Positions 13,601 through 60,906 of a stretch of DNA of 64,000 nucleotides are shown piece by piece. The translations under genes were made by a program, and so were the position numbers. The first letter of the stretch is position 1. Each line of letters starts with the position of its first letter. The notes beneath the pieces were generated by a model that saw nothing but the letters and a program-made list of their open reading frames with translations, did not search any database and had not been told where the DNA came from. This DNA comes from Spirochaetia bacterium (lineage in GTDB: Bacteria; Spirochaetota; Spirochaetia; WTKD01; G963693115), in assembly GCA_965226055.1 (NCBI GenBank), contig CBDDCA010000006.1:258251-322250 (forward strand), in the 5' to 3' direction.

Positions 13601-16600
13601 TAGGAGTTCCTGATATTGTGCCAGTGCTAGTATTAAAATCTAACCCTGTATTTACTGTTATATCTGGACTTATACTAAAACTTCCTGTTATATCAGGCGT
13701 TTTGGTAAAAGTTATTTCTTTATTTTTTGCAAGTGGAACATTTACATATGTATTTATACTACGATTACTTGCACTTATATTAAAATACCATGTAGGCAAC
13801 TTTGCTACTGCGGTATTCTTAAACATATCTGTTTTTGTCACACCACTTGCTACATTCCAGCTTTCAAGATCTTTTTCAAATGCATTTGCTCCACTGAGCA
13901 TACTACTCATATTGGTGACAGCATTTACATCCCATTCGGATATATCTCCATTGAAAGTAATATTATCCTTAAATAGATCACTCATATCTGTTATTTTACT
14001 TGTATCTATTATGTTGAGATTAGCTTCGTTTCCTTGTACATTTATCTCTGTAGTTATAGCTTGCTTTAATTCTGTTTTATTATTAGGAGTATGCTTATAC
14101 CTACGTATCTCTACCGATATTTTTATTGTCCTATCAGTATCAATATATTTATGTATTACTGTTCCATCTGTCTTTTTACTTGTAAACTGTATGGTATATT
14201 CAGTCTTTGAGATTGCTGTAAGAGGAGTACCCGATATTTTACCAGTGCTAGGATCAAAATCTAAACCTGTATTTTTTGCTATATCTGGACTAACGCTAAA
14301 ACTTCCTGTTATATTAGGTGTTTTGGTAAGGGTTATTTCTTTATCTGTTGCTAATGGTATGTTTTTATATGCAATTATCTTATTATCACTTGCACTTATG
14401 CTAAAATACCATGTAGGCAACTTTGCTACTGCGGTATTCTTAAATATATCTGTTTTTGTCACAGTCCCATCGCTTGCTACATTCCAATCTTCCAGATCTT
14501 GGTTAAATTTTGTCGCTCCCAAGAACATCTTGCCTATATCGGTAACGCTACTTATATTCCAGCTTGATATATCTTGATTAAACGCTGCCGCTGACGAAAA
14601 CATCTGATGCATATTCGTAACTTTTCCTACCTTCCAATTTGATATATCTTTATTAAAAATGGTTGCTCCCGAAAACATAGCTGTCATATTTGTAACTTTT
14701 CTTACATCCCAGCCCGACATATTGCTATTAAAATTTGCTGCTCCTAAAAACATTCGATTCATATCCGTAACTGCCCCTACATTCCACCCCGATATATCTT
14801 TATTGAAACTGGTTGCTCCCGAAAACATATTCCCCATATCATTCACATTTTGTACCTTCCAATTTGATATATCTTGATTAAAACTTGTCGCATTCCAAAA
14901 CATACCATTCATGTTAGTAACACTTTGTACCTTCCAGTTTGATATATCTTGATTAAAACTACCTGCATAATAAAACATACTGCTCATATCAATAACATTA
15001 CTTACATTCCAACCAGAAATATCCCCATTAAATGCAGCAGCTTGATTAAACATATGACTCATATCAGTAACATTACTTACATCCCACTCAGATATTTTAC
15101 CATTAAAAGTAGTATTACTATTAAATAATCCACTCATATCATCAATCTTACTAGTATCAATTATATTTAAGTCAGCAGTATTTCCTTGTAATCCTATCTC
15201 AGTATTTATATTGTTTATTAATTCTAATTTACCAGTAGGAGTATACTTATGCCCTATAGTAACTGTTATCGTTATTGTCCTATCAGTATAGGCATATATT
15301 GTTTTCCCATTCTTTTCACTGGTAAACTGTATGGTGTAAGGAGTTTTTGAAGCTACCTTTGTAGGAGTACCCGATATTGTCCCAGAGCTAGAATCAAAAC
15401 TCAAGCCTGTATTTGTTGTGATACTTGGACTTATACTAAAACTTCCTGCTATACTAGGTGTTTTGGTAACTTTTATTTCTTCACTTGCTCCTAATTTTAT
15501 ACGTGCTTGCCCTGTCAGAGCAGACTTATTTGCACTTATACTAAAATACCATGTAGGTAACTTTGCTACTGCGGTATTCTTAAACATATCTGTTTTTGTC
15601 ACAGTCCCATCGCTTGCCACCTTCCAGCTTTCAAGATCTTTGTCAAATGCACTTGCTCCTAAAAACATGCTACTCATATCAGCAACCTTGCTTACATTCC
15701 ATCCCGATACATTTTGATTGAAACTTGTTGCTCCTGAAAACATATTACTCATATCGGTAACGCTACTTACATCCCATCCCGATATATCTCCATTGAAATT
15801 AGCTTTATTCTCAAATATATTACTCATATCTGTTATATTACTTGTATTTATTATGTTTAAGTTAGCAGTATTTCCTTGTACTTCTATCTCCTTTTTTATG
15901 TTTTCCAATAACTCTGTTTTGTTGTTAGGAGTATAAAGATAAGTATTTATTGCTACTGATAGAGTGATGGATCTAGTATCGACATAAGTATATGTCGCTG
16001 GATTACCTGAGCTATCAGTAAAGCTACTGGTAAACTGTATGGTGTAAGAAGTTTGTGAAGCTGCCTCGGTAGGAGTACCCGATATTGTGCCAGTTCTAGT
16101 ATCAAAATCTAACCCTGTATTTGCTTTGATATCTGGACTTATACTGAAACTTCCTGCTATAAGGGGTGTCCTTGTCAGTATTATATCTGTTATTGGTACT
16201 TTTACTCCCTCATGTATACTATTGCTGCTTGCGCTTATACTAAAATACCATGTAGGTAATTTTGCTACTGCAGTATTCGTAAACATATTTGTTTTTGTCT
16301 TAAGGCTTGCTATATTCCAGTTTTCAATATCTCCATTAAATTTTATCGCCCCACTCAACATATTTTCCATATCAGTGACTTTACTTACATTCCACTCGGA
16401 TATATTTCCATTGAAAGTAGTGTTATCCTTAAATAGATCACTCATATCTGTTATGTTACTTGTATCTATTATGTTGAGATTAGCAGTATTTCCTTGTGCA
16501 TTTATCTCTGTAGTTATAGCTTGCTTTAATTCTGCTATATTATTGGGAGTATGCTTATATTTATGTATCTCTACTGATATTGTTATTGTTCTATCAGTAT

Positions 16601-19073
16601 AGGTATGTGTTGCTAAAGCACCTGTACTACCAGTAAAGCTACTGGTAAACTGTATGGTGTAAGAAGTTTGTGAAACTGCTTTGGTAGGAGTGCCTGATAT
16701 TGTCCCAGTGCTAGTATTAAAACTCAACCCTGTATTTGCTGTTATATCTGGACTAATACTAAAATTTCCTGCTATATCAGGCGTTTTGCTAAGGGTTATT
16801 TCTTCATTTTTTGCTAGCGGTATTCCTCTATATACATCTATACTAGCACTATTTGACTTTATGCTAAAATACCATGTAGGTAATTTTGCTACTGCGGTAT
16901 TCTTAAATATATCTGTTTTTGTCACAGCGATTGCTACATTCCAGCCTTCAAGATCTTGTGTAAACTTAGAAGCACCAGAAAACATGCTACTCATATTGGT
17001 AACCTTGCTTACATTCCATCCCGACACATTTTGATTGAAACTTGTTGCTCCTAAAAACATACTGCTCATATCGGCAACTTTACTTACATTCCATCCCGAT
17101 ACATTTTGATTGAAACTTGTTGCTCCTAAAAACATACTGCTCATATCGGTAACTTTACTTACATTCCATTTCGATATGTCTCCATTAAAACTTGTTGCTC
17201 CTGAAAACATACTGCTCATATCGGTAACTTTACTTACATTCCATTTCGATATATCTCCATTGAAAGTAGTGTTATCCTTAAATAGCCTACTCATATCTGT
17301 TATAAGACTCGTATTTATTATGTTTAGATTAGCAGTATTTCCTTGCAATCCTACCTCTGTTTTTATAGCTTCCAATAATTCTGCTTTATTTTTTGGCTTA
17401 TACTCTATAGTGAGCAATATTTCTATTGTCCTATCAGTATCAGTATAGGTATGTATTTCTGTCCTATCAGAGGAGGTACTTGTAAATGTTATAATATACT
17501 CAGTCTCTGAGGCTACCTTTGTAGGAGTACCTGATATTGTGCCAGTACTAGTATCAAAACTCAACCCTATACTCGTTATATCTGGCTTTATACCAAATTT
17601 TCCTGTTATATCAGGCGTTTTGCTAAGAGTTATTTTTTCATTATCTGCTAGTGATACCCCTTTATATACAGTGAGCTCATCAACATTAGCACTTATGCTA
17701 AAATACCATGTAGGCAATTTTGCTACTGCGGTATTTGTAAACATATCTTTTTTTGTCACAGTGCTTGCTACATTCCAGCCTTCAAGATCTTTATCAAATG
17801 CACTTGCTCCTGAAAACATACCATCCATATCTGTAATATTACTTACCTTCCACTTTGATATGTCTCCATTGAAACTTGTTGCTCCTGCAAACATATTACT
17901 CATATCGGTAACATTGCTTACATCCCACAATGATATATCTCTATTAAAGGTAGTGTCATCCTTAAATAGATCATGCATATCTTTTACAGCACTTGTATTT
18001 ATATAGTTAAAATTATCTACATCAGTATTTTTAATTGCTTCTATTAATTCGTTACGTGTTTTTACTATAGCAGTAAACACCGATACATATATAGAGAACT
18101 GGCTAGACTTTCCTAAGTAACTTCCATCCCCTGTAAAACGAATTGTATATTTTCTTCGTATACCATTTTCTTTATCCTTCAATAACCTTATTGCAGTGCC
18201 ATATATTTCTCCATTATTGTCCTTCATCTCCAATCCTGTATCTTCCGTAAGAGTTGTCGTTTTTCCATCAGTACTATTAAATTCAATACTCCATGTACCA
18301 GTAATTCCTGGAGGGCTTGTTGCAATATTGATTGGCATTAAAGGAACATTCAAGCTCGACTTGATTAACTGTTCATTATCATACCTATCTGTGATAGAGT
18401 TTCCATCACGCACAAGAGTAAATACATAATGCCAACTAGGAATACTTGTTGCAGGTACATTAGCTCCCTTAAATATATCTTGTATATTTACTGAATCTGC
18501 TACCTGCCATTTCTCTAAATCATACTGAAACACTGTTGCTTTATTAAACATGTTACTCATATCGGTAACCTTGCTCACATTCCAGCCTGATATATCTTGA
18601 TTAAAACTTGCTGCGGCTTCAAACATGTTACTCATATCGGTAACCTTGCTCACATTCCAGCCTGATATATTTTGATTAAAACTCGTTGCTCCCTTAAACA
18701 GATTACTCATATTAGTAACATTACTTACATTCCAGCCTGATATATTTCCATTAAAGGTAGTATTTCCTTCAAACATACTGCTCATATCAGTAATATTGCT
18801 TACATCCCAACTTGATATATCACCTGAAAAATTGGAAAATTCACCATCACCTTTGAATAAGCCGCTTATATCTTTTACTTTACTTGTATCTATAGTAGAG
18901 AGATCTGCTGCATTTCCGCGGGAGGCAATTTCTCGCTTAATGTTTTCAATAAGCGATTCTCTACTATCAGGAGAGTAAATAAAGTCTAAACTTAAAGATT
19001 TTTCTGGATCACAACCAGATACCAAAAAAGCGAAACATAAAAATAGCCAAAATATAAAAAATTGATACTTCAT
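10605..19073 (-). CDS. Giant 2822-aa modular surface lipoprotein: about 10 modules, each a DUF285 repeat block plus a He_PIG-type Ig-like domain
   Basis: Lipobox (FLVSGC). Each module reads '..NTANLNIIDTS.ITDMS.LF', then 3-8 repeats of 'F.GATSFNQDIS.WNVS.VTDMS.MF', then 'AVAKLPTWYFSISA...ITLTKTP.I(A/T)GSFSISPDIT.NTGLSFDTSTGTISGTPT...YTIQFTS'. Confidence 0.85.
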   Translation of the reverse strand: MKYQFFIFWLFLCFAFLVSGCDPEKSLSLDFIYSPDSRESLIENIKREIASRGNAADLSTIDTSKVKDISGLFKGDGEFSNFSGDISSWDVSNITDMSSMFEGNTTFNGNISGWNVSNVTNMSNLFKGATSFNQNISGWNVSKVTDMSNMFEAAASFNQDISGWNVSKVTDMSNMFNKATVFQYDLEKWQVADSVNIQDIFKGANVPATSIPSWHYVFTLVRDGNSITDRYDNEQLIKSSLNVPLMPINIATSPPGITGTWSIEFNSTDGKTTTLTEDTGLEMKDNNGEIYGTAIRLLKDKENGIRRKYTIRFTGDGSYLGKSSQFSIYVSVFTAIVKTRNELIEAIKNTDVDNFNYINTSAVKDMHDLFKDDTTFNRDISLWDVSNVTDMSNMFAGATSFNGDISKWKVSNITDMDGMFSGASAFDKDLEGWNVASTVTKKDMFTNTAVAKLPTWYFSISANVDELTVYKGVSLADNEKITLSKTPDITGKFGIKPDITSIGLSFDTSTGTISGTPTKVASETEYIITFTSTSSDRTEIHTYTDTDRTIEILLTIEYKPKNKAELLEAIKTEVGLQGNTANLNIINTSLITDMSRLFKDNTTFNGDISKWNVSKVTDMSSMFSGATSFNGDISKWNVSKVTDMSSMFLGATSFNQNVSGWNVSKVADMSSMFLGATSFNQNVSGWNVSKVTNMSSMFSGASKFTQDLEGWNVAIAVTKTDIFKNTAVAKLPTWYFSIKSNSASIDVYRGIPLAKNEEITLSKTPDIAGNFSISPDITANTGLSFNTSTGTISGTPTKAVSQTSYTIQFTSSFTGSTGALATHTYTDRTITISVEIHKYKHTPNNIAELKQAITTEINAQGNTANLNIIDTSNITDMSDLFKDNTTFNGNISEWNVSKVTDMENMLSGAIKFNGDIENWNIASLKTKTNMFTNTAVAKLPTWYFSISASSNSIHEGVKVPITDIILTRTPLIAGSFSISPDIKANTGLDFDTRTGTISGTPTEAASQTSYTIQFTSSFTDSSGNPATYTYVDTRSITLSVAINTYLYTPNNKTELLENIKKEIEVQGNTANLNIINTSNITDMSNIFENKANFNGDISGWDVSSVTDMSNMFSGATSFNQNVSGWNVSKVADMSSMFLGASAFDKDLESWKVASDGTVTKTDMFKNTAVAKLPTWYFSISANKSALTGQARIKLGASEEIKVTKTPSIAGSFSISPSITTNTGLSFDSSSGTISGTPTKVASKTPYTIQFTSEKNGKTIYAYTDRTITITVTIGHKYTPTGKLELINNINTEIGLQGNTADLNIIDTSKIDDMSGLFNSNTTFNGKISEWDVSNVTDMSHMFNQAAAFNGDISGWNVSNVIDMSSMFYYAGSFNQDISNWKVQSVTNMNGMFWNATSFNQDISNWKVQNVNDMGNMFSGATSFNKDISGWNVGAVTDMNRMFLGAANFNSNMSGWDVRKVTNMTAMFSGATIFNKDISNWKVGKVTNMHQMFSSAAAFNQDISSWNISSVTDIGKMFLGATKFNQDLEDWNVASDGTVTKTDIFKNTAVAKLPTWYFSISASDNKIIAYKNIPLATDKEITLTKTPNITGSFSVSPDIAKNTGLDFDPSTGKISGTPLTAISKTEYTIQFTSKKTDGTVIHKYIDTDRTIKISVEIRRYKHTPNNKTELKQAITTEINVQGNEANLNIIDTSKITDMSDLFKDNITFNGDISEWDVNAVTNMSSMLSGANAFEKDLESWNVASGVTKTDMFKNTAVAKLPTWYFNISASNRSINTYVNVPLAKNKEITFTKTPDITGSFSISPDITVNTGLDFNTSTGTISGTPTKAASKTDYTIEFTSSFTDSKGNPATHKYTDRTIKISVTTSYKHTPSNKTELQKAVDDEIAAQGDTANLNIIDTSVITDMSNLFEDKANFNGDISKWNVSKVTNMSNMFLNANKFNGDISGWNVSAVTNMESLFAGAHAFNQDIKNWTVSKVINMRAMFLSAQSFNQDIKNWTVSKVTNMETMFNFASKFSANLENWNVKSSVIKTNMFESTVVKKLPTWYFSINANRTTITGYKDLSLSNTETITLTKTSNVTGSFSISPNITTNTGLNFDTNTGSISGTPTILASQTKYTIQFTSEKNGKTIHTYTDRTIEIHVTISQYKYTPSDKTELQKAVDDEINAQGNTANLNIIDTSAITDMSNIFSSKDHFNGNVSKWDVSKVTNMSSIFAGAQKFNGDISNWNVSSVTNMFFMFNNANAFNQDLESWNVDSGVTKTDMFLASAVKKLPTWYFSISANSTTISVYRDLSLLDSQKIILTKTPVITGSFSISPNITTNTGLNFDTSTGIISGTPTTVTSQTEYTIQFRSEEADKTLIHKYIDDRRTIKVLVTIKEYKHIPNNKAELQQAINTEITVQGNTPDLTMIDTSKIKDMSSLFSSEVNFNGNISRWNVSSVTNMSSMFFKASEFNQDITGWNVSKVTDMRSMFINASKFNQDITGWNVSKVTDMSNMFKGASVFNKELETWNVDKTVSKTNMFEHTAVVILPTWYFNISASRASIGGSVKAYVGVPLTKDKEVTLTKTPAIAGIFSISPDITADTGLSFDADTGKISGTPTKAASKTYTIEFTSKKSDGKAIHTYTDASRSKTISVTIEYKYTPQNKKKLEEAIEAEIKAQGFAPNLNMIDTSNITDMGGLFYDKQYFNGDVSLWNVSKVTDMSNMFNQTEFFNGDISKWNVGKVTNMNSMFYDAEAFNQDIGNWNVSNVANMRYMFYDADVFNQDIGNWNVSNVTDMSSMFADASVFNQNLSNWNVANSVIKTDMFKGTAVKNLPGWCLPAGNCR

Positions 19074-42087: not shown

Positions 42088-43044
42088 TCATATTGGTATC
42101 TTAATCCATGCTTGAGGCACATCTGTATCATTGATACTGTATCCTTCTTTTTCTTTAGAACTAATATACGGTAAAATTACTATCTTATCTTTATTTGTAT
42201 TAAGCCATGCTCCCCACCAACTAAATGTACTACTTGCAATTATTTGATGCTTACATTTACTTAGCAAATATAAATCTTCATGTCCTTTTGAAAGTGAATT
42301 TCCGTCCATAATAGTAAAGGATATATGAGAGAAACGATGAGCTTGCCTTTTAACCCATGCAGGATCATCACTAAAGAAAAAATAATGTGGATGCTGTAAT
42401 TTTTTCTGCATAATATGTATTGCAGCAAGATAATAATCTATACCTACCAAATTGCCTATAGTAACAACATCTGTCCTACGAATATGAACTCCCACTGATT
42501 GCTTTTTACTCAATATGATGTTTTCGTATTTTAAAGAATAGCTGCCAAGTGGATTACGAAGGGTACATTGCTGAAGAATATCACTTCGATACTCTTCAAA
42601 AAATGTATGACATTGAAACCAACCATCAAGGTACACATTATTCCCCAGACGAAATAAAGATTGTACATACTCATCTGGATACCCATATTTAACATGATGA
42701 TTATTAAACGTTTTCAAACAATATATCTTTGTAAGATACCGTTTAAGAAATAATGCTACTTTCATAGGAACATTCATTTTCCTTATAAGAGATAATAAAG
42801 CATGCACTCTCCTATAATATTTGTAAGAAGGTATTAGTAAGCAACCATATTGAGCAATAATATTATATTCATCAAGAAAAAGAATACGAGCTTTTATACT
42901 GTTACCAGCAGAATCTTTCACAAAATAATCATAATCTAAAAAATCAAGAACAACATAGGTATTATTTTTTCTTGCTAAGGCATAGGCTGTAGCGTATTGA
43001 AATAACTGATTACCAAGTCTCCCTTGTACTTTAACAGCTATCAT
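42088..43044 (-). CDS. Glycosyltransferase family 11 (alpha-1,2-fucosyltransferase-like)
   Basis: N-terminal 'MIAVKVQGRLGNQLFQYATAYALA' is the GT11 hallmark (FutC/WbsJ-like). Its start lies inside the 3' end of the upstream HtrL-like gene. Confidence 0.75.
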   Translation of the reverse strand: MIAVKVQGRLGNQLFQYATAYALARKNNTYVVLDFLDYDYFVKDSAGNSIKARILFLDEYNIIAQYGCLLIPSYKYYRRVHALLSLIRKMNVPMKVALFLKRYLTKIYCLKTFNNHHVKYGYPDEYVQSLFRLGNNVYLDGWFQCHTFFEEYRSDILQQCTLRNPLGSYSLKYENIILSKKQSVGVHIRRTDVVTIGNLVGIDYYLAAIHIMQKKLQHPHYFFFSDDPAWVKRQAHRFSHISFTIMDGNSLSKGHEDLYLLSKCKHQIIASSTFSWWGAWLNTNKDKIVILPYISSKEKEGYSINDTDVPQAWIKIPI

Positions 43045-43990
43045 ATCTTATACCATATTTATCCCTTCCATTGAGGACGTACCCCCCCCCCCCCAATTTC
43101 CACAGCATGCCTTTTACAATATTCTTAAAAGATTGATATAACGAAGGTTTCATTTTTTTCTGTAATAATTTCTCTGGTAAAAAATATTGATGAAAATAAA
43201 ACCATACATCAAAAGGATGAGGAGGATCAATCATATGAAAATATTCGGGATATCCAATGGCAAGACGAGCATATATATTTTGTTCTACTCCAATAAATGT
43301 ACCATGAGAAGACATGTTATCCTTCAATGTATAGTAAAGATTATGTATTTTTAAGAGAATAGAGCTATGAATAAGAAATAAGCCTCCAACATGTTCTCTT
43401 GTTCGCAAGGTCAATGTAGCTATATTTTCTTTCTCCTTCGCATATTGTTGAACATCAAACCTTTGTTCTGTTTTTGTCATTACTACTTTATGGGGAGACA
43501 TAGTAGTTACTTTTTCTACATCAGGCCACTGTCTAATTTCTCTTGGTTTCAAATCGTAATCATACCTACGCTTTCTTCCTCTAAACGCTCCAATATCCAT
43601 CCACATAAACCACTGCGACCGAAACACATTTAACTCATACGCTTCTTTTACAAAATGTAATTTTTCGTTCCATATAATATACAGCTCAGGATCATGTATA
43701 TCTTTTTCTTTATTTTTTGCATGATGTTCTTGATACAATGCATAATGAGCATACTCATGAAGCTGATGAAATTCTTTTATAATAACAACAGTATTTTCTT
43801 GATACTTTTTCCTTAATCGTAAAAAATAGGGAGCATGCTCTTTATCAGTAAATATAACGAGCGGGAGTTTCATATTACAGAGAAAATTTTTTATCCACTG
43901 TTTATACATATCATCACTATGTTTTGATTTCTTAAGACGATAATATGCAGTCACTATTGTGAGACTATTCTTAACAATACTTTCCTCCAA
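43031..43990 (-). CDS. HtrL/YibB-family putative glycosyltransferase, copy 1. It has a poly-G tract near its 3' end
   Basis: 'SLTIVTAYYRLKKS...' has HtrL_YibB-like N-terminal topology. It is about 96% identical to the 44115-45119 protein up to '...MLWKLGGGG', after which the tails differ. Confidence 0.6.
   Translation of the reverse strand: MEESIVKNSLTIVTAYYRLKKSKHSDDMYKQWIKNFLCNMKLPLVIFTDKEHAPYFLRLRKKYQENTVVIIKEFHQLHEYAHYALYQEHHAKNKEKDIHDPELYIIWNEKLHFVKEAYELNVFRSQWFMWMDIGAFRGRKRRYDYDLKPREIRQWPDVEKVTTMSPHKVVMTKTEQRFDVQQYAKEKENIATLTLRTREHVGGLFLIHSSILLKIHNLYYTLKDNMSSHGTFIGVEQNIYARLAIGYPEYFHMIDPPHPFDVWFYFHQYFLPEKLLQKKMKPSLYQSFKNIVKGMLWKLGGGGYVLNGRDKYGIRYDSC
43082..43094 (-). repeat. Homopolymeric tract C13 on the + strand (G13 on the coding strand). 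It lies ~17 codons before the stop of HtrL copy 1
   Basis: Counted directly: 43081 'a', then 13 c, then 'aatttcc'. Confidence 0.95.
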
Positions 43991-44046
43991 ACACTAGTAC
44001 AAGTATATCATACTAGTACTATTTTTATTTAAGTCAACAATAACGA

Positions 44047-44085
44047 TCACGAGTTCAAGGAGTAACTGCGACAAAGGAGCAAAAA
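44047..44085 (+). repeat. Solo IS30-family left-end (IRL) remnant at the junction of the tandem HtrL duplication
   Basis: 'cacgagttcaaggagtaactgcgacaaaggagcaaaaaa' matches the IS30 left end at 54784 with four mismatches. Confidence 0.5.
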
Positions 44086-44114
44086 ACATACTGTTACCTA
44101 ATTTATGTGATCTA

Positions 44115-45119
44115 TCAAAAATAAGACAAGATGCCATTAGTATACAACAAAAATTCTATTTTATAAGCAAACTCTCTTTCCTTCCTTATTATTATTCCAT
44201 TGGGGTGTACCCCCCCCCCCCCCAATTTCCACAGCATGCCTTTTACAATATTCTTAAAAGATTGATACAACGAAGGCTTTATTTTTTTCTGTAATAATTT
44301 CTCTGGTAAAAAATATTGATGAAAATAAAACCATACATCAAAAGCATGAGAAGGATCAATCATATGAAAATATTCAGGATATCCAATGGCAAGACGAGCA
44401 TATATATTTTGGTCTACTCCAATAAATGTACCATGAGAAAACATATTATCCTTCAATGTATAATAAAGATTATGTATTTTTAAGAGAATAGAGCTATGAA
44501 TAAGAAATAAGCCTCCAACATGTTCTCTTGTTCGCAAGGTCAATGTAGCTATATTTTCTTTCTCTTTCGCATATTGTTGAACATCAAACTCTTCCTCTGT
44601 TTTTATCATTACTGCTTTATGGGGAGACATAGTAGTTACTTTTTCTACATCAGGCCACTGTCTAATTTCTCTTGGTTTCAAATCGTAATCATACCTACGC
44701 TTTCTTCCTCTAAACGCTCCAATATCCATCCACATAAACCACTGCGACCGAAACACATTTAACTCATACGCTTCTTTTACAAAATGTAATTTTTCGTTCC
44801 ATATAATATACAGCTCAGGATCATGTATATCTTTTTGTATATCTTTTGCATGATGTTCTTGATACAATGCATAATGAGCATACTCATGAAGCTGATGAAA
44901 TTCTTTTATAATAACAACAGTATTTTCTTGATACTTTTTCCTTAATCGTAAAAAATAGGGAGCATGCTCTTTATCAGTAAATATAACGAGCGGGAGTTTC
45001 ATATTACAGAGAAAATTTTTTATCCACTGTTTATACATATCATCACTATGTTTTGATTTCTTAAGACGATAATATGCAGTCACTATTGTGAGACTATTCT
45101 TAGCAATACTTTCCTCCAA
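44115..45119 (-). CDS. HtrL/YibB-family putative glycosyltransferase, copy 2. It has a poly-G tract near its 3' end
   Basis: Tandem paralog of 43031-43990. It is identical over most of its length and diverges at only a few residues (e.g. KDIQKD vs KNKEKD; MIKTEEEFD vs MTKTEQRFD). Confidence 0.6.
   Translation of the reverse strand: MEESIAKNSLTIVTAYYRLKKSKHSDDMYKQWIKNFLCNMKLPLVIFTDKEHAPYFLRLRKKYQENTVVIIKEFHQLHEYAHYALYQEHHAKDIQKDIHDPELYIIWNEKLHFVKEAYELNVFRSQWFMWMDIGAFRGRKRRYDYDLKPREIRQWPDVEKVTTMSPHKAVMIKTEEEFDVQQYAKEKENIATLTLRTREHVGGLFLIHSSILLKIHNLYYTLKDNMFSHGTFIGVDQNIYARLAIGYPEYFHMIDPSHAFDVWFYFHQYFLPEKLLQKKIKPSLYQSFKNIVKGMLWKLGGGGVHPNGIIIRKEREFAYKIEFLLYTNGILSYF
44210..44223 (-). repeat. Homopolymeric tract C14 on the + strand (G14 on the coding strand) in HtrL copy 2
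   Basis: Counted directly: '...tggggtgta' then 14 c (44210-44223) then 'aatttcc'. This is one nucleotide longer than the tract in copy 1. Confidence 0.95.
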
Positions 45120-45224
45120 ACACTAGTACAAGTATATCATACTAGTACTATTTTTATTTAAGTCAACAATAACGATACTATACCAATAGCCCAAAATTAT
45201 AAGGGCTATTGATATATGCAAGTA

Positions 45225-49835: not shown

Positions 49836-50699
49836 TTAATGAGAGATACTATTAACTTTTAAACTATCTTTGAAAAATAATATTTCTTTTCCATTCTTAG
49901 TTTTATTAGCAAAATGTTTTAGAATAAAAGGTTTTCTATTTTTTACCCAAGAAAAATTTTCATTTATTTCCTCTTTATCATCATAAGAAACAATCCAAGA
50001 AAATTTTTTAATATTTTTAATTTTTTCACTTAAGATTTTATGCTGATCTTGTTTATAAAAGTTTAAGTATAAATCTTTTCCTTTATTAAAATAGGGAGGA
50101 TCAAAATAAAATATTGTCTGCTTATTTTTTTCTTCTTTTTGAATTTTATCAATTAGTTCTAAAACATCTAGATTATGCAGAGTTATTTGTTCTTTATACC
50201 TTGCTATTAATTTGATTTTTTTTATTATTGTATCTTTATTGAATCTACAATTTAATTTATATTTTCCTTTTTGTTTTAAGCCTCCAATAGGACCTCCTTT
50301 TAAAATTCCTGAAAAATTTGCCCTATTTAAAAATAATGTAGAAAAGCCTACCTCTAATGATGAAAAATTTTGTATCTCTTTTTGTATTTCTTTTTGTTTT
50401 TTCCAATTTTCTATACTTATTTCTGTATCATGTATGAGTGTGCATAACTCATCAGTTTTATTCAAAACACAATACCAAAAAGAATAAATAGATTTGTCTA
50501 AATCATTTAAAGTTATTTTTTTAAATTTATTTTCTAATAAAAGATATAAACCAACTGAAGCTCCTCCACAAAAAGGCTCTACATAATGATCATTTATTTT
50601 ATTATCAGTGCAAATTTGAGAAATAAATTTTGAAAGCCTATTCTTTCCTCCTGGATATCTTAATGGTGAATAAAATTTATTTTTAATCATTTTTACCAT
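49836..50699 (-). CDS. Dam-family (D12, alpha-class) N6-adenine DNA methyltransferase
   Basis: 'YPGGKNRL' , then motif I 'EPFCGGASV', then 'NDLDKSIY', then motif IV 'FYFDPPYF'. The gene is very AT-rich compared with its neighbours. Confidence 0.8.
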   Translation of the reverse strand: MVKMIKNKFYSPLRYPGGKNRLSKFISQICTDNKINDHYVEPFCGGASVGLYLLLENKFKKITLNDLDKSIYSFWYCVLNKTDELCTLIHDTEISIENWKKQKEIQKEIQNFSSLEVGFSTLFLNRANFSGILKGGPIGGLKQKGKYKLNCRFNKDTIIKKIKLIARYKEQITLHNLDVLELIDKIQKEEKNKQTIFYFDPPYFNKGKDLYLNFYKQDQHKILSEKIKNIKKFSWIVSYDDKEEINENFSWVKNRKPFILKHFANKTKNGKEILFFKDSLKVNSISH

Positions 50700-51969
50700 A
50701 GTAATGCTTTAATATTTTCCCTACAATTTTAGAACACTGTAAAATATTTGTTTTATCATATTCAATATTTGCGTGAGCATATTTTGCTAATAACGATTCA
50801 AAATCAGAATTTTTTTTCAAAATGTCTGTGCCAATACTATTGAAATTTAATTCTTTTTGATCTAACATATCAGATGCTTTAATTTCTTTCATAAATTCTC
50901 CAAAAACAGCATCATCACTTGCTCGTTTATCTCCCTCATTTTCAAAATATTTTCTTCCAGCAGCCTCCATTATTAGTCTCAAAGACATACCTATAATAGG
51001 TAAGATATTTTTATCTCTTTTAAATGTTTCATAAATTTCATCTAGTATACTATACAAATCATTAACTTTTCCTTTTTTTAGTTCTAATTTTTCTCCAAAT
51101 AAAGTATCTACGATTGCTTTATCTCTAGGAGTTTTTCTTAGTTTTTTTTGTAAATTATTATCTTTTATCACATTCTTGCTACTCTGTTCTGTAAAATTTC
51201 TAATATTTAATTCTTTATCATCAATTAAAGGTTTTATTGATCCTCTATTTTTTCTTGTACTTATTTGTTTACTTTGAATCAATTGTATTAATTTTTCAAA
51301 AATTAATTGTAATTTTTCATCCTTTTCATATGAAGGATAAACACTCTCTAATTTATTATTTGAATCAAAATAAAAACCTAATTTGTAAAAATTATCTACA
51401 GTCAAAATTTCTGTTTTAATAAAATTTTGATCTAGTGCTTTATAATTCTCACTTATTAAATGTGTTGCTTCTTCAATTTTTAAAAATAAACTTTTTTCCT
51501 TTTTCAAATGATAATGATCAAAATAATCTTGTTGTAAAGCAGACCAAGTATTATTTCTTATATTATCTGCTTGTATAATTGTTAATGCTGTTTTCTCATT
51601 ACATAAAACACAAGAAATTTCTTTTAAGTTTACTAAATTTTTTGGTGGACTAGATGGAAATAATTTTTTTTCTATTACAACAGACCATTGTGGATTTTGT
51701 AAATATTTTAATACTACTATTCTTTTATTACCATCATAAACAATATGTTTTTTATTTTTAAAAACAACAATTGGTAATTTATTAAGATGATAGAAATCTC
51801 CCATTTCTTCAATTAGCTTTGGAATATTCCATTTATCTCTATCATCCTTTATGGCTTTTTTTATTATTTCTAAATCTCCAATATCTTCTCCAATTGGATC
51901 TCTTGGATTTTCAGTCCATAAATGTAATTCCGATATTTTTATCTCTTTGATTTTTTGATCATCACCCAT
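50683..51969 (-). CDS. ParB/Srx-like (DUF262-like) nuclease-domain protein, 428 aa. Its gene overlaps the start of the Dam-family MTase gene
   Basis: N-terminal 'ISELHLWTENPRDP ... LPIVVFKNKKHIVYDGNKRIVVLKYL' fits the ParB N-terminal/DUF262 pattern (NPR...DG.xR). I recognise no domain in the C-terminal half. Confidence 0.6.
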   Translation of the reverse strand: MGDDQKIKEIKISELHLWTENPRDPIGEDIGDLEIIKKAIKDDRDKWNIPKLIEEMGDFYHLNKLPIVVFKNKKHIVYDGNKRIVVLKYLQNPQWSVVIEKKLFPSSPPKNLVNLKEISCVLCNEKTALTIIQADNIRNNTWSALQQDYFDHYHLKKEKSLFLKIEEATHLISENYKALDQNFIKTEILTVDNFYKLGFYFDSNNKLESVYPSYEKDEKLQLIFEKLIQLIQSKQISTRKNRGSIKPLIDDKELNIRNFTEQSSKNVIKDNNLQKKLRKTPRDKAIVDTLFGEKLELKKGKVNDLYSILDEIYETFKRDKNILPIIGMSLRLIMEAAGRKYFENEGDKRASDDAVFGEFMKEIKASDMLDQKELNFNSIGTDILKKNSDFESLLAKYAHANIEYDKTNILQCSKIVGKILKHYYGKND

Positions 51970-54785: not shown

Positions 54786-55864
54786 CGAGTTCAAGGATTA
54801 AATGCGACAAAGGAGCAAAAAAAGTAAGAAAAAATAAAAAAAGGAGACACTCTATAATTGTATAAACGAAACAAATTAGGAGGTCTCCTTTATGAGTATA
54901 CCAAAAAACTCATTTCGTCATCTGACAGAGAAAGATCGTACTATTATCGCTACGCTCCGTCATGCAAAGTACAGTGTCAATGCTATAGCCAAACGCCTCA
55001 GTGTCCATCGCAGCACTGTCTATCGTGAAATACAACGCAATGGGGGCAAACGTGTCTATAATGAAGTCATTGCTCACAGACGGGCAAGAAAACGATGGGA
55101 ACAGAGTCATACAAAACACTCTGTTCTTTCTCATACTATTCGTACCTATATCGTTTTTCACCTTATTTTCGATGGCTGGTCGCCCGAACAAATAGCAGGA
55201 AGGCTCAGTATTGATATGCCTCAGTATGCTATCAGTCATGAGACGATATATCACTTTATTTACCGTTTCGCTCCTCATTTGACACAGTATCTGCGAAAAC
55301 AGCACCAAACACGCAAAAAAAGAACCATATCTCACTCTTTTTCTGTTTCTCGTATCCCTCATCGTGTCTCAGTACACGAACGAGGCGATGTTTCTAATGA
55401 ATATGGCCACTGGGAAGTAGATCTTGTTGGCTCTTCTTCAAAAGCTACTGTGCTTGCTTTAGTGGAAAAACATACCCGTTATGTTCTTTTTCATAAGATA
55501 CCTGACAAAACTGCTCATACCGTACAGTATGGCATGCTCTTTGCTCTAAGGAACATACCACGCCATTTATGTAACAGTTTCACTTATGATAATGGGAGTG
55601 AATTTATGCTCCATACTGAAATAAATACACGCTTGAATGCTCGTTCTTATTTTTGTACTCCTTACTGTGCTTGGGAAAAAGGATTAGTCGAACATTCTAT
55701 TGGATTATTACGTCAGTACTTTCCTAAGAAGACTTTGTTTCATAGAGTCAAGCAAAGTGATATACTACAAGTACAAACGCTTATCAATCATAGACCACGA
55801 AAATGTCTTCATTTTTTGACCCCTGCTGAAGCCTTTTCTGTCGCATTTAGTCCTTGAATCCGCA
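54786..55864 (+). mobile_element. Intact IS30-family insertion sequence (~1.08 kb) with terminal inverted repeats of ~23-25 bp
   Basis: IRL 'cgagttcaaggattaaatgcgaca' (54787-54810). The reverse complement of the right end (55839-55863) reads 'gcggattcaaggactaaatgcgaca'. A single transposase ORF is present and its stop lies inside the IRR. Confidence 0.8.
54892..55857 (+). CDS. IS30-family DDE transposase
   Basis: An N-terminal HTH ('..NAIAKRLSVHRSTVYREIQRNGG', cf. IS30 '..RSTISRELKRN') and a C-terminal DDE region (HWEVDLV ... YDNGSEF ... CLHF). An RBS 'aggagg' lies 8 nt upstream. Confidence 0.85.
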   Translation: MSIPKNSFRHLTEKDRTIIATLRHAKYSVNAIAKRLSVHRSTVYREIQRNGGKRVYNEVIAHRRARKRWEQSHTKHSVLSHTIRTYIVFHLIFDGWSPEQIAGRLSIDMPQYAISHETIYHFIYRFAPHLTQYLRKQHQTRKKRTISHSFSVSRIPHRVSVHERGDVSNEYGHWEVDLVGSSSKATVLALVEKHTRYVLFHKIPDKTAHTVQYGMLFALRNIPRHLCNSFTYDNGSEFMLHTEINTRLNARSYFCTPYCAWEKGLVEHSIGLLRQYFPKKTLFHRVKQSDILQVQTLINHRPRKCLHFLTPAEAFSVAFSP

Positions 55865-56137
55865 CTTAGTACAGAAAATAATAAGGAAATGATAATTACT
55901 CTTATGGCTGATAAATTTGAAATTGCTAAAGACGCAATGACTTATCGTCTGGGATTACAAAATAAATAGCTTTTTTATGATAGCCTAAAAAACTCTCTGT
56001 AATTGCCCATCATAGCAATACTACAAAAATTTTAATTTTTTACTATAATACTAGTGTATGATGATAACATACAATAATGAAACAAAAGGAGTATTTCTAT
56101 GAATGAAAATAGAGAGCTACAAAGTATGAAAAAAATC

Positions 56138-56152
56138 GGGGGGGGGGGGGGG
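56138..56152 (+). repeat. Homopolymeric G15 tract inside the 5' end of the lipoprotein reading frame (a candidate slipped-strand phase-variation switch)
   Basis: Counted directly: 'aaaaaatc' + 15 g + 'tacactc'. The upstream ATG at 56099 (with a GGAG RBS 8 nt upstream) reads MNENRELQSMKKIGGGGG and terminates at the TAA at 56177 in the current frame. Confidence 0.95.
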
Positions 56153-56190
56153 TACACTCTCGATATAAGCAAAACCTAACTATACTAGTA

Positions 56191-59100
56191 GTGCTAGCAA
56201 TGACTACCCTCGTACTTGTAGGATGTGCAGAGAGTAGCAACAATTCCTCATCAGGCGGAGGGGGAAAACAGGTAACCCCGACACTCGCATCAGTGTCCAA
56301 TGTGCAGATACAAGCAGCAAGCAACGATGGGACGCTCTCGTTACGCTGGCAAGCTCCCAGCGAAGCCACGCATGTAGTAGTAAAAGCTACATCAACTGCG
56401 CCAGCACAATCTATACAGGTGCGTGTTCCTGCAATAGAATATCGTGCATTGTTTCAACAAAACAGACCCTACACCCTCAGAGGCTTGCATGCCACTACCG
56501 ATTATACAGTAGAGATAGAAGCACAAAAATCAGACTCAGAAGTATCACCAAAAACAACACGCTCTGTGACAACACTGATCGATGAAACTGCACCACAGGA
56601 CACTTTTACACGGGTAGCAGTAGAGAAAGCACAAAACGATAGTATAAAGCTAACATGGGACAAAGCACTGCTATCGTCAGGCAAGACAGACATAGCCGAA
56701 GCCACAATACAGGTGATAGAAAGAACTACTAATGTAAGGGCAGAAGTATCAGTACAAGATGTAACACAAGGAGAGGTGAGCATTGCTGTCCCCACTATAG
56801 ACGGCATAAGCTATGATATAGTAGTAGTATACAAAGATAGCAACGGTAACGAAAGCACAGCAAAGCAAGCACTCAGAGGCATAGTGCCATCAGCACTCTC
56901 ACAAACAGTAACGCCACTTTCCGCATCAGACCTTACAGTAACAGCAAACGATAAAAGCAATAGCCCAGCCGATGAAAGCCTGCTTATTATGTGGGATGAT
57001 AAAGATGACAGCTTTGACTTTTCAAACAAAAGCCTCCAAGTACGCGTTATAGCAACCGCAACAAATACAGTAGTAGCAGAGGAGACAATAGACAAAGATA
57101 CAAGTGCAACAAATGTCAGCGGAGCAAGTGCAGACAACCAAGAGTACGCCACTGTGTATGTAGCAAAAGATGGCATAGCACTCACAAAACTCTATGGCAC
57201 GCTTACCTACAAAGTAGAAGTGTATGTTTCTCAAAACGGAAAGTACTCCACTGCAGTGTCAAAAGAACAAGCAACAACAGACAAAAGCACAGAGCCTGTA
57301 AGCAATGTAAGTGCCGTAGGAGGAGCAACAAGCATAGTAGTAGGCTGGCAAGCCCCCGATGTACGAGATTATGCAGGAGTGACTATAACAGTAACAGAAA
57401 AGGACAGCACAACAGCAGCAAAGACAGTGACAATAACAGAGAGAACAGTACGCAACACACAGATAACAGACCTCAAAGCAACCACCGAGTATACAGTGGC
57501 AGTCGTATCAATGGACAGTGCAGGCAACAAAGGAACAGAAGCAACAGCCACAGTCAGCACATCAGCAGATAGCACCGCCCCCGATGCAGTAACAAGCATA
57601 CAAGCAAGCTATCCTTTTGTATCAGCAGCAAAGATAGGCACACAGATAACATGGACAGCACCCGATGCAGCAAAAGCAAAGAACAAAGACATAAAAGAAT
57701 ACAGCGTAAGCATAGCAGAAAAAGGCACAAGCACCACAGTACTGAGCGAGAAGAAAATACCCTATCCCACAAAGTCACTCTCTGTAGAAGAACTTGTGCA
57801 AGGCAAAACATATACCATAACAATACTCACGCTTGATTACTCAGAAAACAAAAGTAGCCAAGCCACAAAAGACATAACAACCCCCAACTCACTCACAGCT
57901 CCCTCAGAAGATCTCTTTCAAAGCAAGCCTACCCTTGACAAAACAGGAGCTATACAGATAAAAGCAACTTTTAAGAATGCTCCAAGCATAGGACGATACT
58001 ACACCTTGCGTATGAAAGAGGGAGCTACCTTAATAGCAGAAAAAAGCATAACAAACACAGCAATCACCATTAGCTTTGGGATAGCAGATGGCTTAGAAGT
58101 ACCTAAGAGCCAAGCAAATGCCAAGAATTATCGCTTTGATTTTCTGCAAATAGCAAATAACAGAGTAAGTCCAGTAACCGCACTGAGTGATGCAGTAGCA
58201 GTATACGATAGCACCTCGACAGCACCGCCCGCTCCCAAAGATGCAAAGCTCTCCGTAGAGTCAGTAACCCAAACAACTGCAAAAGCAGTCTATACATTTA
58301 GTGCAGGAGACATTACTGATACCAACAAAGCACCCAGCGGAAGCAAACTCACACAGGCACAAATACAATACAAAGTATACATAGCAGCAGGAGACCACAG
58401 CACAAAAACACTAGACGAAATAAAAGCCCTTGCAGGAGTACAAACAAGAGAGCTAGCAGGAAACAGCACTCCATTAAAAGCAACATTTATAGGAACGAAA
58501 GGAGCAGACTATACCGCAGGGGTAGAAGCAATAAACAGCCTCAATCCATCATATAGTACAGGAGCATCAGTAACAATAAAGAAAGCAACACTTACTGCTC
58601 CCCCAAGCACACCAAAAGTAACAACCTACACTAACAGTAATGCAGTGGTATTTGCAGTGCCTACCACAGGAAGTAACAGCGGGAAAAAAGTCATAACAGT
58701 ACAACTCAATGCCTCAGACATAGCAGGAGTGAGCAAGGCAAATGGCAATGCCCTTGAAGCGACAGACCTTGCCTACTATGTGCTATACCTCAAGAAAGAA
58801 GATAGCACAGGAAAGCCTGCCAGCGTATCAGCACTATGGGCAACAGAAAAGAGCAGTACAAGAGTGGCAAAATACACAAAAGCAACAGGAACAACTCAAG
58901 ACACAATATCCATAGCAATAGTAGACAGCACCAGTGGAAGCAATGCAGGAGCCACACCCATAGAAACAGCAAAAGACTACTACATAGGAGTAAGGATAGT
59001 CAACACAACATCCCCCAATTACGATGCAACAAATAGCGACAAGCTCTTTCCTGCAGGCTTTTACACCGATGTAACAGAAATAAAGGAAATCTATACTTCC

Positions 59101-60906
59101 AAAGCAGTAGCACCCAGCCAGTCATTACTCACAGGAAAGCTGGTAGTATCACAGTCAACAAATACTACAGGCACAATAAAGCTGGTACTTACCGAGCTAA
59201 ATACATTTACAGGAGCAAAAGACTACGATGGCACAAACATAACAGCAAATGACAAGCTAGTATACACAGTGTATGGCTTACAGAAAGACACCACTCCTAC
59301 AGTAGCAGAAGTACTTGCAGGCAGAAAAGTAAACCTAGGCAGTGCAAGTAGCGGAGTGTACACAGTACCAGCTCTTGCCAGTTTAGGCTTATCTTCAGAC
59401 ACAGCACCAGTAGTAGCAATAAAAGGAGCGACAAAGTATTACTTTGTGGTAGAGGTAGCAATAAAAACAGACCCTAGCAAGAAAGTAGCATCCTCAACAG
59501 TAGCAAGCGTAACAACCGCATCGCAGGCGACCGCCCCCGCAGAAGTAAGCAGTATACAGACAAGAGTAGCCCAGACAGGCATGAGAGTATCGTGGACAGC
59601 CCCCAGCCTCAGTGCAAGCCACAAAGCAAATACAGGCGATGCCCTAACAGTAGCACAAGTATCGTACAAGGTATACAAAGTAGCTAAGGGAGGCAGTGCA
59701 AAAAGTGTAGCAGCAATAAAACAAGCAGACTCAAGTCCTACAACAGTAGCAGCAGGAACAACAAACACTACCCTGACAGGATTGACAAACGGAACGACCT
59801 ACGAAATAGTAGTGCAAGCAGTAAACAGCACCGATGATACAAAAGCATCCACTGGACTACGCCACGAGTTTGAAGCAAGAGGAATAGCTATAGGAAACAC
59901 TAGCATAGTCTCAGCAGAAGTAGGCAAAACGCCAGCAATAAATATTACAAGAGTACTTACCAGTAACTCTGCCTTTACCTGTGATGCAAACATACTAGAG
60001 GCAGATGCAAAGAAGATAAAACAAGAAACAGGGCTAGCAGTATCGTTTGATCAGAGTAGCAAAACAGTTACTATAACAGGCATAGCAAATAAGTCTAATA
60101 TACGAGATACAGCCATTACTGAGTATAACTATGCTGTAGCACAGTGTACAATAACCGCTTCAAAGAAAAAAGTGCCAGCCACCATCGTGATACAGACAGA
60201 GCTAAGAACAGCACCATCAGGAAAAGCAGAAGCCTATTACAGACCAACAACAAAGGCACAGCTTCAAACTATTATCAGTGAAGAAAAGACAAGGCAAGGT
60301 TCAGGAGGAAACAGTAACCCTAGCCCCAACCTCAACATGATAGACACCAGTGCTATTACTGATATGAGCCAATTATTTCAGAATGATACTACTTTTAATG
60401 GAGATCTAACACAGTGGAATACCAGTAATGTAACGAGAATGAATGGTATGTTTACTGATGCAAGTGTTTTTAATCAAAATATAGGAGATTGGGATACAGG
60501 AGAAGTTATACATATAGGTAGTATGTTTTTTAGAGCAAGTGTTTTTAATCAAAATATAGGAAGCTGGAATATAAGTAAAGTTAAAAATATTGATAGTATG
60601 TTTGCTAGTGCCAGTGCTTTTAATCAAGACATAGGAAATTGGGACACAAGCAATGTTATTAATATGAGTACTACATTTTTGAGTGCAAGTGCCTTTAATC
60701 AAGACATAGGAAACTGGAATGTAAAGAATGTCGATTCTATAACTGGTATGTTTAACGGAGCTTCTACATTTGATCAAGATTTATCATCATGGATATTGTG
60801 TAAAGCAAGTCTCACTTTTTTGGAGTTCGAAAATTCGGCTATGGATGGAAAAACAGCAAAGTACCCGACAGTAAAGCGTCAAAGTGATCCAGCATGTACA
60901 TCGTAA
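56191..60906 (+). CDS. Large chimeric surface lipoprotein (1571 aa): Ig/FN3-like domains plus a C-terminal DUF285 repeat module
   Basis: Lipobox (..LVLVGC). Several 'S(L/I)..W.AP' FN3-like domains. One FN3 unit (about 59520-59880) is homologous to the 1791-4043 repeats. The C-terminal 'NLNMIDTSAITDMSQLF..FNQNIGDWDT..' carries six DUF285 repeats. The frame is open from 56113, but the strong start at 56099 is out of frame. Confidence 0.75.
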   Translation: MLAMTTLVLVGCAESSNNSSSGGGGKQVTPTLASVSNVQIQAASNDGTLSLRWQAPSEATHVVVKATSTAPAQSIQVRVPAIEYRALFQQNRPYTLRGLHATTDYTVEIEAQKSDSEVSPKTTRSVTTLIDETAPQDTFTRVAVEKAQNDSIKLTWDKALLSSGKTDIAEATIQVIERTTNVRAEVSVQDVTQGEVSIAVPTIDGISYDIVVVYKDSNGNESTAKQALRGIVPSALSQTVTPLSASDLTVTANDKSNSPADESLLIMWDDKDDSFDFSNKSLQVRVIATATNTVVAEETIDKDTSATNVSGASADNQEYATVYVAKDGIALTKLYGTLTYKVEVYVSQNGKYSTAVSKEQATTDKSTEPVSNVSAVGGATSIVVGWQAPDVRDYAGVTITVTEKDSTTAAKTVTITERTVRNTQITDLKATTEYTVAVVSMDSAGNKGTEATATVSTSADSTAPDAVTSIQASYPFVSAAKIGTQITWTAPDAAKAKNKDIKEYSVSIAEKGTSTTVLSEKKIPYPTKSLSVEELVQGKTYTITILTLDYSENKSSQATKDITTPNSLTAPSEDLFQSKPTLDKTGAIQIKATFKNAPSIGRYYTLRMKEGATLIAEKSITNTAITISFGIADGLEVPKSQANAKNYRFDFLQIANNRVSPVTALSDAVAVYDSTSTAPPAPKDAKLSVESVTQTTAKAVYTFSAGDITDTNKAPSGSKLTQAQIQYKVYIAAGDHSTKTLDEIKALAGVQTRELAGNSTPLKATFIGTKGADYTAGVEAINSLNPSYSTGASVTIKKATLTAPPSTPKVTTYTNSNAVVFAVPTTGSNSGKKVITVQLNASDIAGVSKANGNALEATDLAYYVLYLKKEDSTGKPASVSALWATEKSSTRVAKYTKATGTTQDTISIAIVDSTSGSNAGATPIETAKDYYIGVRIVNTTSPNYDATNSDKLFPAGFYTDVTEIKEIYTSKAVAPSQSLLTGKLVVSQSTNTTGTIKLVLTELNTFTGAKDYDGTNITANDKLVYTVYGLQKDTTPTVAEVLAGRKVNLGSASSGVYTVPALASLGLSSDTAPVVAIKGATKYYFVVEVAIKTDPSKKVASSTVASVTTASQATAPAEVSSIQTRVAQTGMRVSWTAPSLSASHKANTGDALTVAQVSYKVYKVAKGGSAKSVAAIKQADSSPTTVAAGTTNTTLTGLTNGTTYEIVVQAVNSTDDTKASTGLRHEFEARGIAIGNTSIVSAEVGKTPAINITRVLTSNSAFTCDANILEADAKKIKQETGLAVSFDQSSKTVTITGIANKSNIRDTAITEYNYAVAQCTITASKKKVPATIVIQTELRTAPSGKAEAYYRPTTKAQLQTIISEEKTRQGSGGNSNPSPNLNMIDTSAITDMSQLFQNDTTFNGDLTQWNTSNVTRMNGMFTDASVFNQNIGDWDTGEVIHIGSMFFRASVFNQNIGSWNISKVKNIDSMFASASAFNQDIGNWDTSNVINMSTTFLSASAFNQDIGNWNVKNVDSITGMFNGASTFDQDLSSWILCKASLTFLEFENSAMDGKTAKYPTVKRQSDPACTS

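Follow-up and report, generated by a model that had tools for sequence, protein, structure and literature searches.

What does a bacterium gain when a long homopolymer sits at the very end of a gene, where a shift of reading frame alters only the last residues of the protein? The question is raised by a locus in a 64,000-nucleotide stretch of DNA from a Spirochaetia bacterium (GenBank assembly GCA_965226055.1, contig CBDDCA010000006.1, positions 258,251 to 322,250; the whole stretch is called the window here), in which two tandem genes of the HtrL/YibB family each carry a poly-G tract near the 3′ end and are followed by a gene of the GT11 family, the alpha-1,2-fucosyltransferase family. A sequence-only reading of this DNA had taken the locus for a device of variable surface fucosylation, on the model of Lewis-antigen phase variation in Helicobacter pylori. 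The explanation that we favour, and hold to be probable if by no means assured, is a recent tandem duplication with poly-G 'C-terminal phase variation', whose phenotypic effect is real but modest, or null.

Poly-G tracts at the ends of two tandem genes

All genes of the locus lie on the minus strand, and coordinates are positions in the 64-kb window. Copy 1 of the HtrL/YibB-family gene (43031-43990) encodes 319 residues that divide into a GT-A-like core (about residues 10-270), a basic amphipathic C-terminal extension (271-298), a glycine run and a tail predicted to be disordered. Copy 2 (44115-45119) encodes 334 residues when counted from a TTG at 45119, and the two proteins are 95.6% identical over the 298 residues that precede the tract, 13 of which differ. 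The tracts, G13 at 43082-43094 in copy 1 (C13 on the plus strand) and G14 at 44210-44223 in copy 2 (C14 on the plus strand, with the first G completing the leucine codon TTG), can be placed directly, and their lengths were read from one metagenome-assembled consensus, in which homopolymer lengths are unreliable. Tract 1 lies 37 nt upstream of the ATG (43044) of the GT11-family gene (42088-43044; 318 residues), which is itself free of simple sequence repeats (SSRs), with no G/C run of at least seven bases in its open reading frame (ORF).

Runs of this length are far beyond chance expectation. In the 64 kb of the window, at a G+C content of 34.7%, the number of G/C runs declines geometrically from 15316 at length 1 through 2509, 447, 89 and 19 to four at length 6; there are none of 7 to 12 bases, and lengths 13, 14 and 15 occur once each (43082-43094, 44210-44223 and 56138-56152, the only runs of at least seven). 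The tracts are not attributable to chance because the runs stop at six and then jump to 13, 14 and 15. About 50 kb of related loci hold no G/C run of at least seven bases besides the ortholog of the third tract, which belongs to a lipoprotein gene described below. Both HtrL tracts exceed the length at which G/C homopolymers become hypermutable (about eight or more). When metagenome contigs were scanned with the tract's 19 flanking bases, three matches came up, all of them unrelated chance matches in high-GC sequence.

Slippage in these tracts would merely swap protein tails, because the tract lies about nine codons before the ancestral stop and beyond the conserved domain. It begins at about codon 298 of 319 or 334, and near-full-length protein results in every frame, with stops 5-31 codons beyond the glycine run in all three frames when tract lengths are simulated. 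The native G13 of copy 1 reads ...GGGGYVLNGRDKYGIRYDSC and stops 11 nt past the GT11 ATG, its TAA at 43033-43031 giving a 14-nt overlap with the GT11 start. A simulated G12 reads ...GGGGTSSMEGINMV, with the ancestral-like tail TSSME..., and its stop ends 3 nt before that ATG; G14 reads ...GGGGVRPQWKG, and its stop ends 14 nt before it. In copy 2, the native G14 yields a 31-residue tail, a simulated G13 the ancestral-like ending ...YTPME and a simulated G15 a tail of 15 residues, and no intact gene lies downstream in any of the three cases. Over the three frames the tails thus measure 7, 10 or 16 residues in copy 1 and 5, 15 or 31 in copy 2, and in no simulated frame is the enzyme truncated or fused to GT11. 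An HtrL-GT11 fusion produced by slippage was considered and discarded: the G12 frame matches that of GT11, but a TAA stands two codons before the ATG.

Much of the sequence-only reading is borne out at this point. The tandem paralogs, the tracts of 13 and 14 (as consensus lengths), the GT11 neighbour, the copy 1 stop inside the GT11 start and the expectation that slippage swaps C-terminal tails and moves that stop without gross truncation all hold, the last in simulated frames. Its tail length was right for copy 2 (31 residues) and one too long for copy 1, which has 16 residues after GGGG rather than 17. It had also put the stops of all three frames within some 20-30 codons of the tract; the range is 5-31.

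Origin of the duplication and of the tracts

When a genome collection was scanned with the HtrL alignment, it yielded a single relative, OZ244590.1 ('MAG: Spirochaetia bacterium', a metagenome-assembled genome of 2.36 Mb), with an ortholog and a 45% paralog; no third strain with the locus was found in that collection. The gene order in its locus, L001, is that of the window (ABC (ATP-binding cassette) transporter, DUF4340, HtrL, GT11, E2, E1, WD40), and the flanking genes are 94-99% identical in nucleotides (92-99.6% in amino acids), which is about species level. The HtrL gene is more diverged than its flanks (91% in nucleotides and 85.5% in amino acids; 43095-43990 and 44224-45119 against L001 9884-10774), which points to quicker evolution of this gene or to replacement of its allele.

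The relative is directly seen to carry a single HtrL copy and no tract. At the tract position it has GGAGGGAGAGA instead, reading TTGGAGGGAGAGACGCCCTCAATGGAATAATAATAA, and the protein ends LEGETPSME, with a triple stop behind it and a gap of 18 nt up to the GT11 ATG. Because a relative that is 94-99% identical has one copy and no tract, both the tract and the duplication are, as far as the two sequences tell, recent and strain-specific. The homopolymer would have arisen recently from a purine-rich run, in an ancestral gene that ended nine codons beyond it. The ancestral endings ...SME and ...PME are restored by G12 in copy 1 and by G13 in copy 2; both assembled tracts are one base longer.

The duplicated DNA (43066-44047 and 44195-45176) shows 23 mismatches, and the two units differ further by one base in tract length and, immediately 3′ of the tract, by an indel of one base; the copies can be told apart there, at 43066-43081 and 44195-44209. 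Before the tract, seven synonymous and 14 non-synonymous changes separate copy 1 from copy 2, a ratio of non-synonymous to synonymous rates (dN/dS) of about 0.45. The duplicated segment includes 57 bp upstream of the ORF, with promoter and 5′ untranslated region (5′-UTR). A sigma-70-like promoter, TTGACT-16-TAGTAT, lies upstream of copy 2 (45139-45166), its duplicate lies upstream of copy 1 (44010-44037), and the copy 2 promoter sequence is also present upstream of the single ortholog in L001. The promoter-like site before copy 1 probably drives GT11 as well, because neither a terminator nor another promoter-like site is seen between copy 1 and GT11.

The copies are separated by a unique spacer (44048-44194), whose first part, when aligned to L001, still shows the triple stop TAATAATAA of the ancestor together with about 25 nt of a decayed HtrL-GT11 junction with a remnant of the GT11 start. 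This remnant in the 3′ flank of copy 2 implies that the duplicated unit extended into the GT11 start. A GT11 pseudogene in the spacer, with a 'KLGNSMFF' remnant, is poorly supported, given that only about 25 nt align convincingly with the GT11 start.

In a more distant relative, L002 (318-5018 and 7994-10002), the locus carries two tandem GT11 genes (92% identical in nucleotides, 89% in amino acids), and it seems to be a hotspot for the duplication or rearrangement of glycan genes. L002 also holds two repeats of a gene pair, one member being CTP-transferase-like and the other encoding 299 aa; it contains no G/C run of at least six bases there.

The start of both HtrL-like genes deserves a remark. 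In each (43976-43990 and 45105-45119), a conserved beta-strand of the N-terminus, TIVTAYY, is encoded ahead of the first ATG and in frame with it, and the real start is therefore a non-ATG codon. The spacing of the Shine-Dalgarno (SD) sequence GGAGG fits an ATT at 43978 and 45107, and not the TTG chosen by the ORF finder; for copy 2 the ATT at 45107 is thus better suited than the TTG at 45119. In the public annotation the L001 ortholog is called from the internal Met40, whereby part of the fold is lost, and the public proteins P0001 and P0035 in the window genome also appear to have been called from Met40. P0035 (295 aa) agrees with copy 2 called from M40, by length alone.

Possible consequences of slippage

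The sequence-only reading had labelled the tandem genes glycosyltransferases. Both copies match the Pfam profile PF09612 (HtrL_YibB) with 30.4 and 28.8 bits, above the gathering cut-off of 24.1, so that the similarity is not spurious; 31 of the 34 homologs are precomputed as PF09612. The downstream gene matches PF01531 (Glyco_transf_11) with 89.2 bits, residues 1-298 aligning with positions 1-282 of the 298 in the profile. HtrL_YibB is an uncharacterised family, known from lipooligosaccharide and lipopolysaccharide (LPS) gene clusters only (PMC4172580).

An AlphaFold (AF2) model computed from 14 homologs reaches a mean predicted local distance difference test (pLDDT) score of 82.8 and a predicted template modelling score (pTM) of 0.84. 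Its significant Foldseek neighbours in the PDB are XXYLT1, alpha-1,3-GalT, glycogenin, GtrB and LARGE1, all of which we take to be GT-A fold glycosyltransferases, together with nucleotidyltransferases, at modest template modelling (TM) scores of 0.35-0.45. The motif W130-x-D132-I-G134 is invariant in the HtrL alignment. Metagenomic proteins contain the HtrL domain naturally fused to GT11 (P0034), GT2 (P0010) and GT8 (P0023), and these fusions support a putative functional link of HtrL-like enzymes with other glycosyltransferases, GT11 among them. With such neighbours and fusions it is reasonable to regard the two copies as candidate glycan-building transferases, and the label as reasonable, if indirect.

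The copies score above the family threshold but carry an additional basic C-terminal extension, LPEKLLQKKMKPSLYQSFKNIVKGMLWKL, of about 30 residues, which is common only to the nearest relatives. Most family members end just past a conserved WFY.H.Y motif, some 30 residues short of where the tract sits, and in the closest orthologs the C-terminus falls 6-9 residues beyond that position; the location of the tract past the conserved domain can be observed directly. Residues 271-298 have a net charge of +6, the joint-highest amphipathic moment of the protein falls at residues 283-294, and the extension is modelled as two helices, 273-279 and 282-293. The tract follows directly, and residues 298-319 have a pLDDT below 50. 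According to the model, the tails are probably disordered, and the helix preceding the tract is a probable membrane-binding element.

From these elements a mechanism can be proposed in which the purine-rich 3′-end stretch, preserved as GGAGGGAGAGA in the relative, would have turned into a G13 or G14 homopolymer in both copies. Slipped-strand mispairing, to be expected of G runs this long from what is seen in other bacteria, would alter the tract length, and each slip would exchange one of three short, probably disordered tails behind the basic amphipathic helix. The catalytic domain would be made whatever the tract length, without ON/OFF switching. A slip in copy 1 would also shift the stop relative to the GT11 start, between -14 and +11 nt, which could at most tune GT11 translation. 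The expected effect on the glycan is graded or nil.

Several points weigh against this explanation. The tracts are carried by one genome only, as a single consensus, and the sole comparable relative lacks them, so that nothing indicates that selection has maintained them over long times. An effect of the tails on enzyme activity, localisation or GT11 output is conjectural. The absence of an SD sequence before GT11 is no argument that its translation depends on coupling, because about half of the genes in the window lack one too. Finally, both tracts stand one base beyond the frame of the ortholog, and a systematic one-base error in the consensus would erase the tail difference.

The closest known counterpart is found in Helicobacter canadensis, where eight genes have poly-G tracts of at least 10 at their 3′ ends, five of them in or near a surface-glycan cluster, and where C-terminal phase variation was proposed (Snyder et al. 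2010, PMC2823697). The likeness is considerable: tracts of at least 10 G near the 3′ end in surface-glycan loci, expression that is not abolished, and frames that differ by a few to about 20 C-terminal residues, all of which recur here (PMC2823697). The two traits that define C-terminal phase variation, poly-G of at least 10 near the 3′ end and frames that alter C-terminal residues only, are both present at this locus (PMC2823697). The differences are that H. canadensis is an epsilonproteobacterium, whereas the host here is a spirochete with two tandem paralogs, one tract lying 37 nt upstream of an overlapping GT11 gene, and that length variation was seen at read level in H. canadensis (PMC2823697), in contrast to the consensus lengths of one genome used here. 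C-terminal poly-G switching itself is already known; what is unusual is the host and the tandem doubling. [quoted passage not shown] Should the tracts slip, and should the tails or the position of the stop be of consequence, SSR-based glycan variation would extend to an uncultured Spirochaetia lineage, and the locus would offer a natural test of whether there is such a phenotype. For now, the locus mainly illustrates how quickly a contingency-type tract can arise out of a purine-rich run of codons and then travel with a tandem duplication.

The best-surviving alternative, unlikely but to be reckoned with, accepts the tracts as real and takes the difference between 13 and 14 as a consensus artefact or as the momentary state of a mixed population, the tracts themselves being young and effectively neutral by-products. 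In long-read metagenome consensuses no positions are less reliable than homopolymers of 13-15, and related assemblies bear coverage-tagged contig names (ctg..._14x_c, ..._6.49x_l), which we take to mark long-read metagenome assemblies. In its favour also stand the shared offset of both tracts by one base from the ancestral-like frame, the absence of the tract from a relative at the same species level and a dN/dS of 0.45 between the copies that suggests relaxed constraint. This reading, however, has to account for the path from GGAGGGAGAGA to G13-14, which needs about four A-to-G changes plus expansion against a background divergence of about 4%, and for the lack of intermediate runs of 7-12 in the window, a pattern seen more typically in selected contingency tracts than under drift.

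A rather improbable second alternative holds that the tract of copy 1 tunes GT11, either through coupling of termination and reinitiation or through a C/U-rich small RNA (sRNA) that acts on the G-repeat, and that fucosylation is thereby adjusted gradually. Its geometry is suggestive, with the tract 37 nt upstream of the GT11 ATG, stops at -14, -3 or +11 nt and no terminator or separate promoter in between, but all three stops lie within the normal range of reinitiation and may differ little in effect. A canonical SD sequence is missing before GT11 both in the window (-3.4 kcal/mol) and in L001 (-2.9), which would fit dependence on coupling; genes without SD are common in the window, however, and the argument that GT11 is coupled for want of an SD carries little weight. 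RNA structure that would sequester the GT11 start was likewise dropped as an explanation, since the local fold is ordinary (z = -1.14, not significant). For the sRNA version there is a precedent in H. pylori, where the sRNA RepG acts on a G-repeat (6-16 G) of the bicistronic tlpB-hp0102 mRNA and controls LPS gradually, in dependence on repeat length and with a co-transcribed fucosyltransferase (PMC8295292). In both systems a bicistronic mRNA carries a G-repeat ahead of its fucosyltransferase gene (PMC8295292), but the H. pylori repeat lies in the 5′-UTR and needs a dedicated sRNA, whereas the repeat here is coding, in glycine codons, and an Rfam scan of the window found no family above its gathering score. 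No sRNA is known here, though one of an unknown kind could be encoded elsewhere in the genome. The tract of copy 2, moreover, is equally long yet has no intact gene downstream. An extended version, in which the copy 1 tract is a rheostat for GT11 (by repositioning of the stop or as a G-repeat recognised in trans) with graded fucosylation and copy 2 is an independently switching tail variant, is to be considered quite improbable.

Another spirochete, Treponema pallidum, varies poly-G length in surface-related genes: in tprL and the subfamily II tpr genes, promoter poly-G tracts act on transcription (PMC7864442). The tract here differs in that no sigma-70-like hexamers flank it, and no terminators were found either; a role as promoter spacer, as in tprL, was rejected on the lack of such hexamers.

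Least probable of all is classical phase variation by which the HtrL-like enzymes would be turned ON or OFF, with one active frame, the others inactive or unstable and a glycan epitope switched as a result: the length of the poly-G runs and their place in genes of surface-glycan type, a lipoprotein gene of the lineage with bona fide ON/OFF switching by poly-G and an amphipathic helix just before the tract that could be sensitive to the following sequence speak for it, but the tract lies beyond the whole conserved domain, most homologs end some 30 residues earlier, no frame truncates the protein and the tail is predicted to be disordered.

The analogy with the Lewis antigens of H. pylori does not survive this comparison. 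The futC gene of H. pylori belongs to the GT11 family. In futA, futB, futC and beta-(1,3)galT, poly-C tracts within the ORFs set the frame and switch the enzyme ON or OFF (PMC2806470), and the resemblance lies in a similar tract length (about 12-16 in beta-(1,3)galT; PMC2806470) and in a locus that includes a GT11-family enzyme. The defining feature, a tract inside the fucosyltransferase ORF, is missing here: GT11 has none, and the tract of its neighbour is terminal, in a region of pLDDT below 50. It is not a conserved device either, because it is absent from the relative at the same species level. Variable surface fucosylation, as the sequence-only reading had suggested, is thus unsupported and remains conjecture.

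A poly-G lipoprotein gene and other putative surface genes

The stronger evidence for poly-G switching in this lineage comes from the third long G run of the window, at 56 kb, and not from the HtrL-GT11 locus. An FN3/DUF285 lipoprotein gene (56126-60906, plus strand; 1571 aa) carries a G15 tract at 56138-56152, in codons 5-9 of the signal peptide. With G15, the ATG at 56126 reads MKKIGGGGGYTLDISKT and runs into a stop, the OFF state; a tract of G16 or G13 gives MKKIGGGGG(V)HSRYKQNLTILVVLAMTTLVLVGC... and leads into the 1571-aa protein with its lipobox LVGC, the ON state. The ortholog in OZ244590.1 also has G15 (L008 3930-3944), is split alike and is OFF, and the protein P0038 of a third genome begins ...VKKIGGGGGVHSQYKQNLT...LILVGCSEG, in the ON frame. 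Across these three genomes, the gene shows that long G tracts are genuine and no peculiarity of assembly. Such an arrangement is, by its reading frames, the classical signature expected of translational phase variation, and the lipoprotein gene is a much better candidate for it than the HtrL-GT11 locus.

All three poly-G tracts are directly followed by TAC (43079-43081, 44207-44209 and 56153-56155), and both copy 2 and the lipoprotein gene extend it to TACAC. This shared G(n)TAC(AC) flank was considered as a hint that the HtrL tract was copied from the lipoprotein tract, and rejected, as the tract-less ortholog has the AC already (GAGACGCC); the coincidence that remains is only about 1 in 48. 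A transposase gene with HTH_38 and rve domains, presumably IS30-like, lies at 54892-55857 on the plus strand and ends about 270 nt before the lipoprotein ATG. In the relative, uvrC and a T14 tract (L008 3749-3762) occupy this upstream position instead of the transposase.

Further large, repeat-rich genes for putative surface proteins lie at 1791-4043 (plus strand), 8650-9642 (minus) and 10605-19073 (minus). Genes of surface type include one for an FN3 protein with six 360-nt repeats and one for a 330-aa DUF285 protein, and a 2822-aa ORF is full of 75-nt repeats that resemble those in the DUF285 genes. Because several large proteins of this putative kind are present, the gene content suggests a host-associated lifestyle with a variable surface.

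One more difference between the strains is an island at 49836-51969 (minus strand), between a gene of the metallo-beta-lactamase fold and an ABC transporter gene, when compared with L001 1249-4781. In the window it holds a D12-class N6-adenine DNA methyltransferase and a 428-aa ORF without a Pfam match, possibly a restriction-modification system, and in L001 the same position is taken by a TnpB/Cas12f-like gene and DUF4468.

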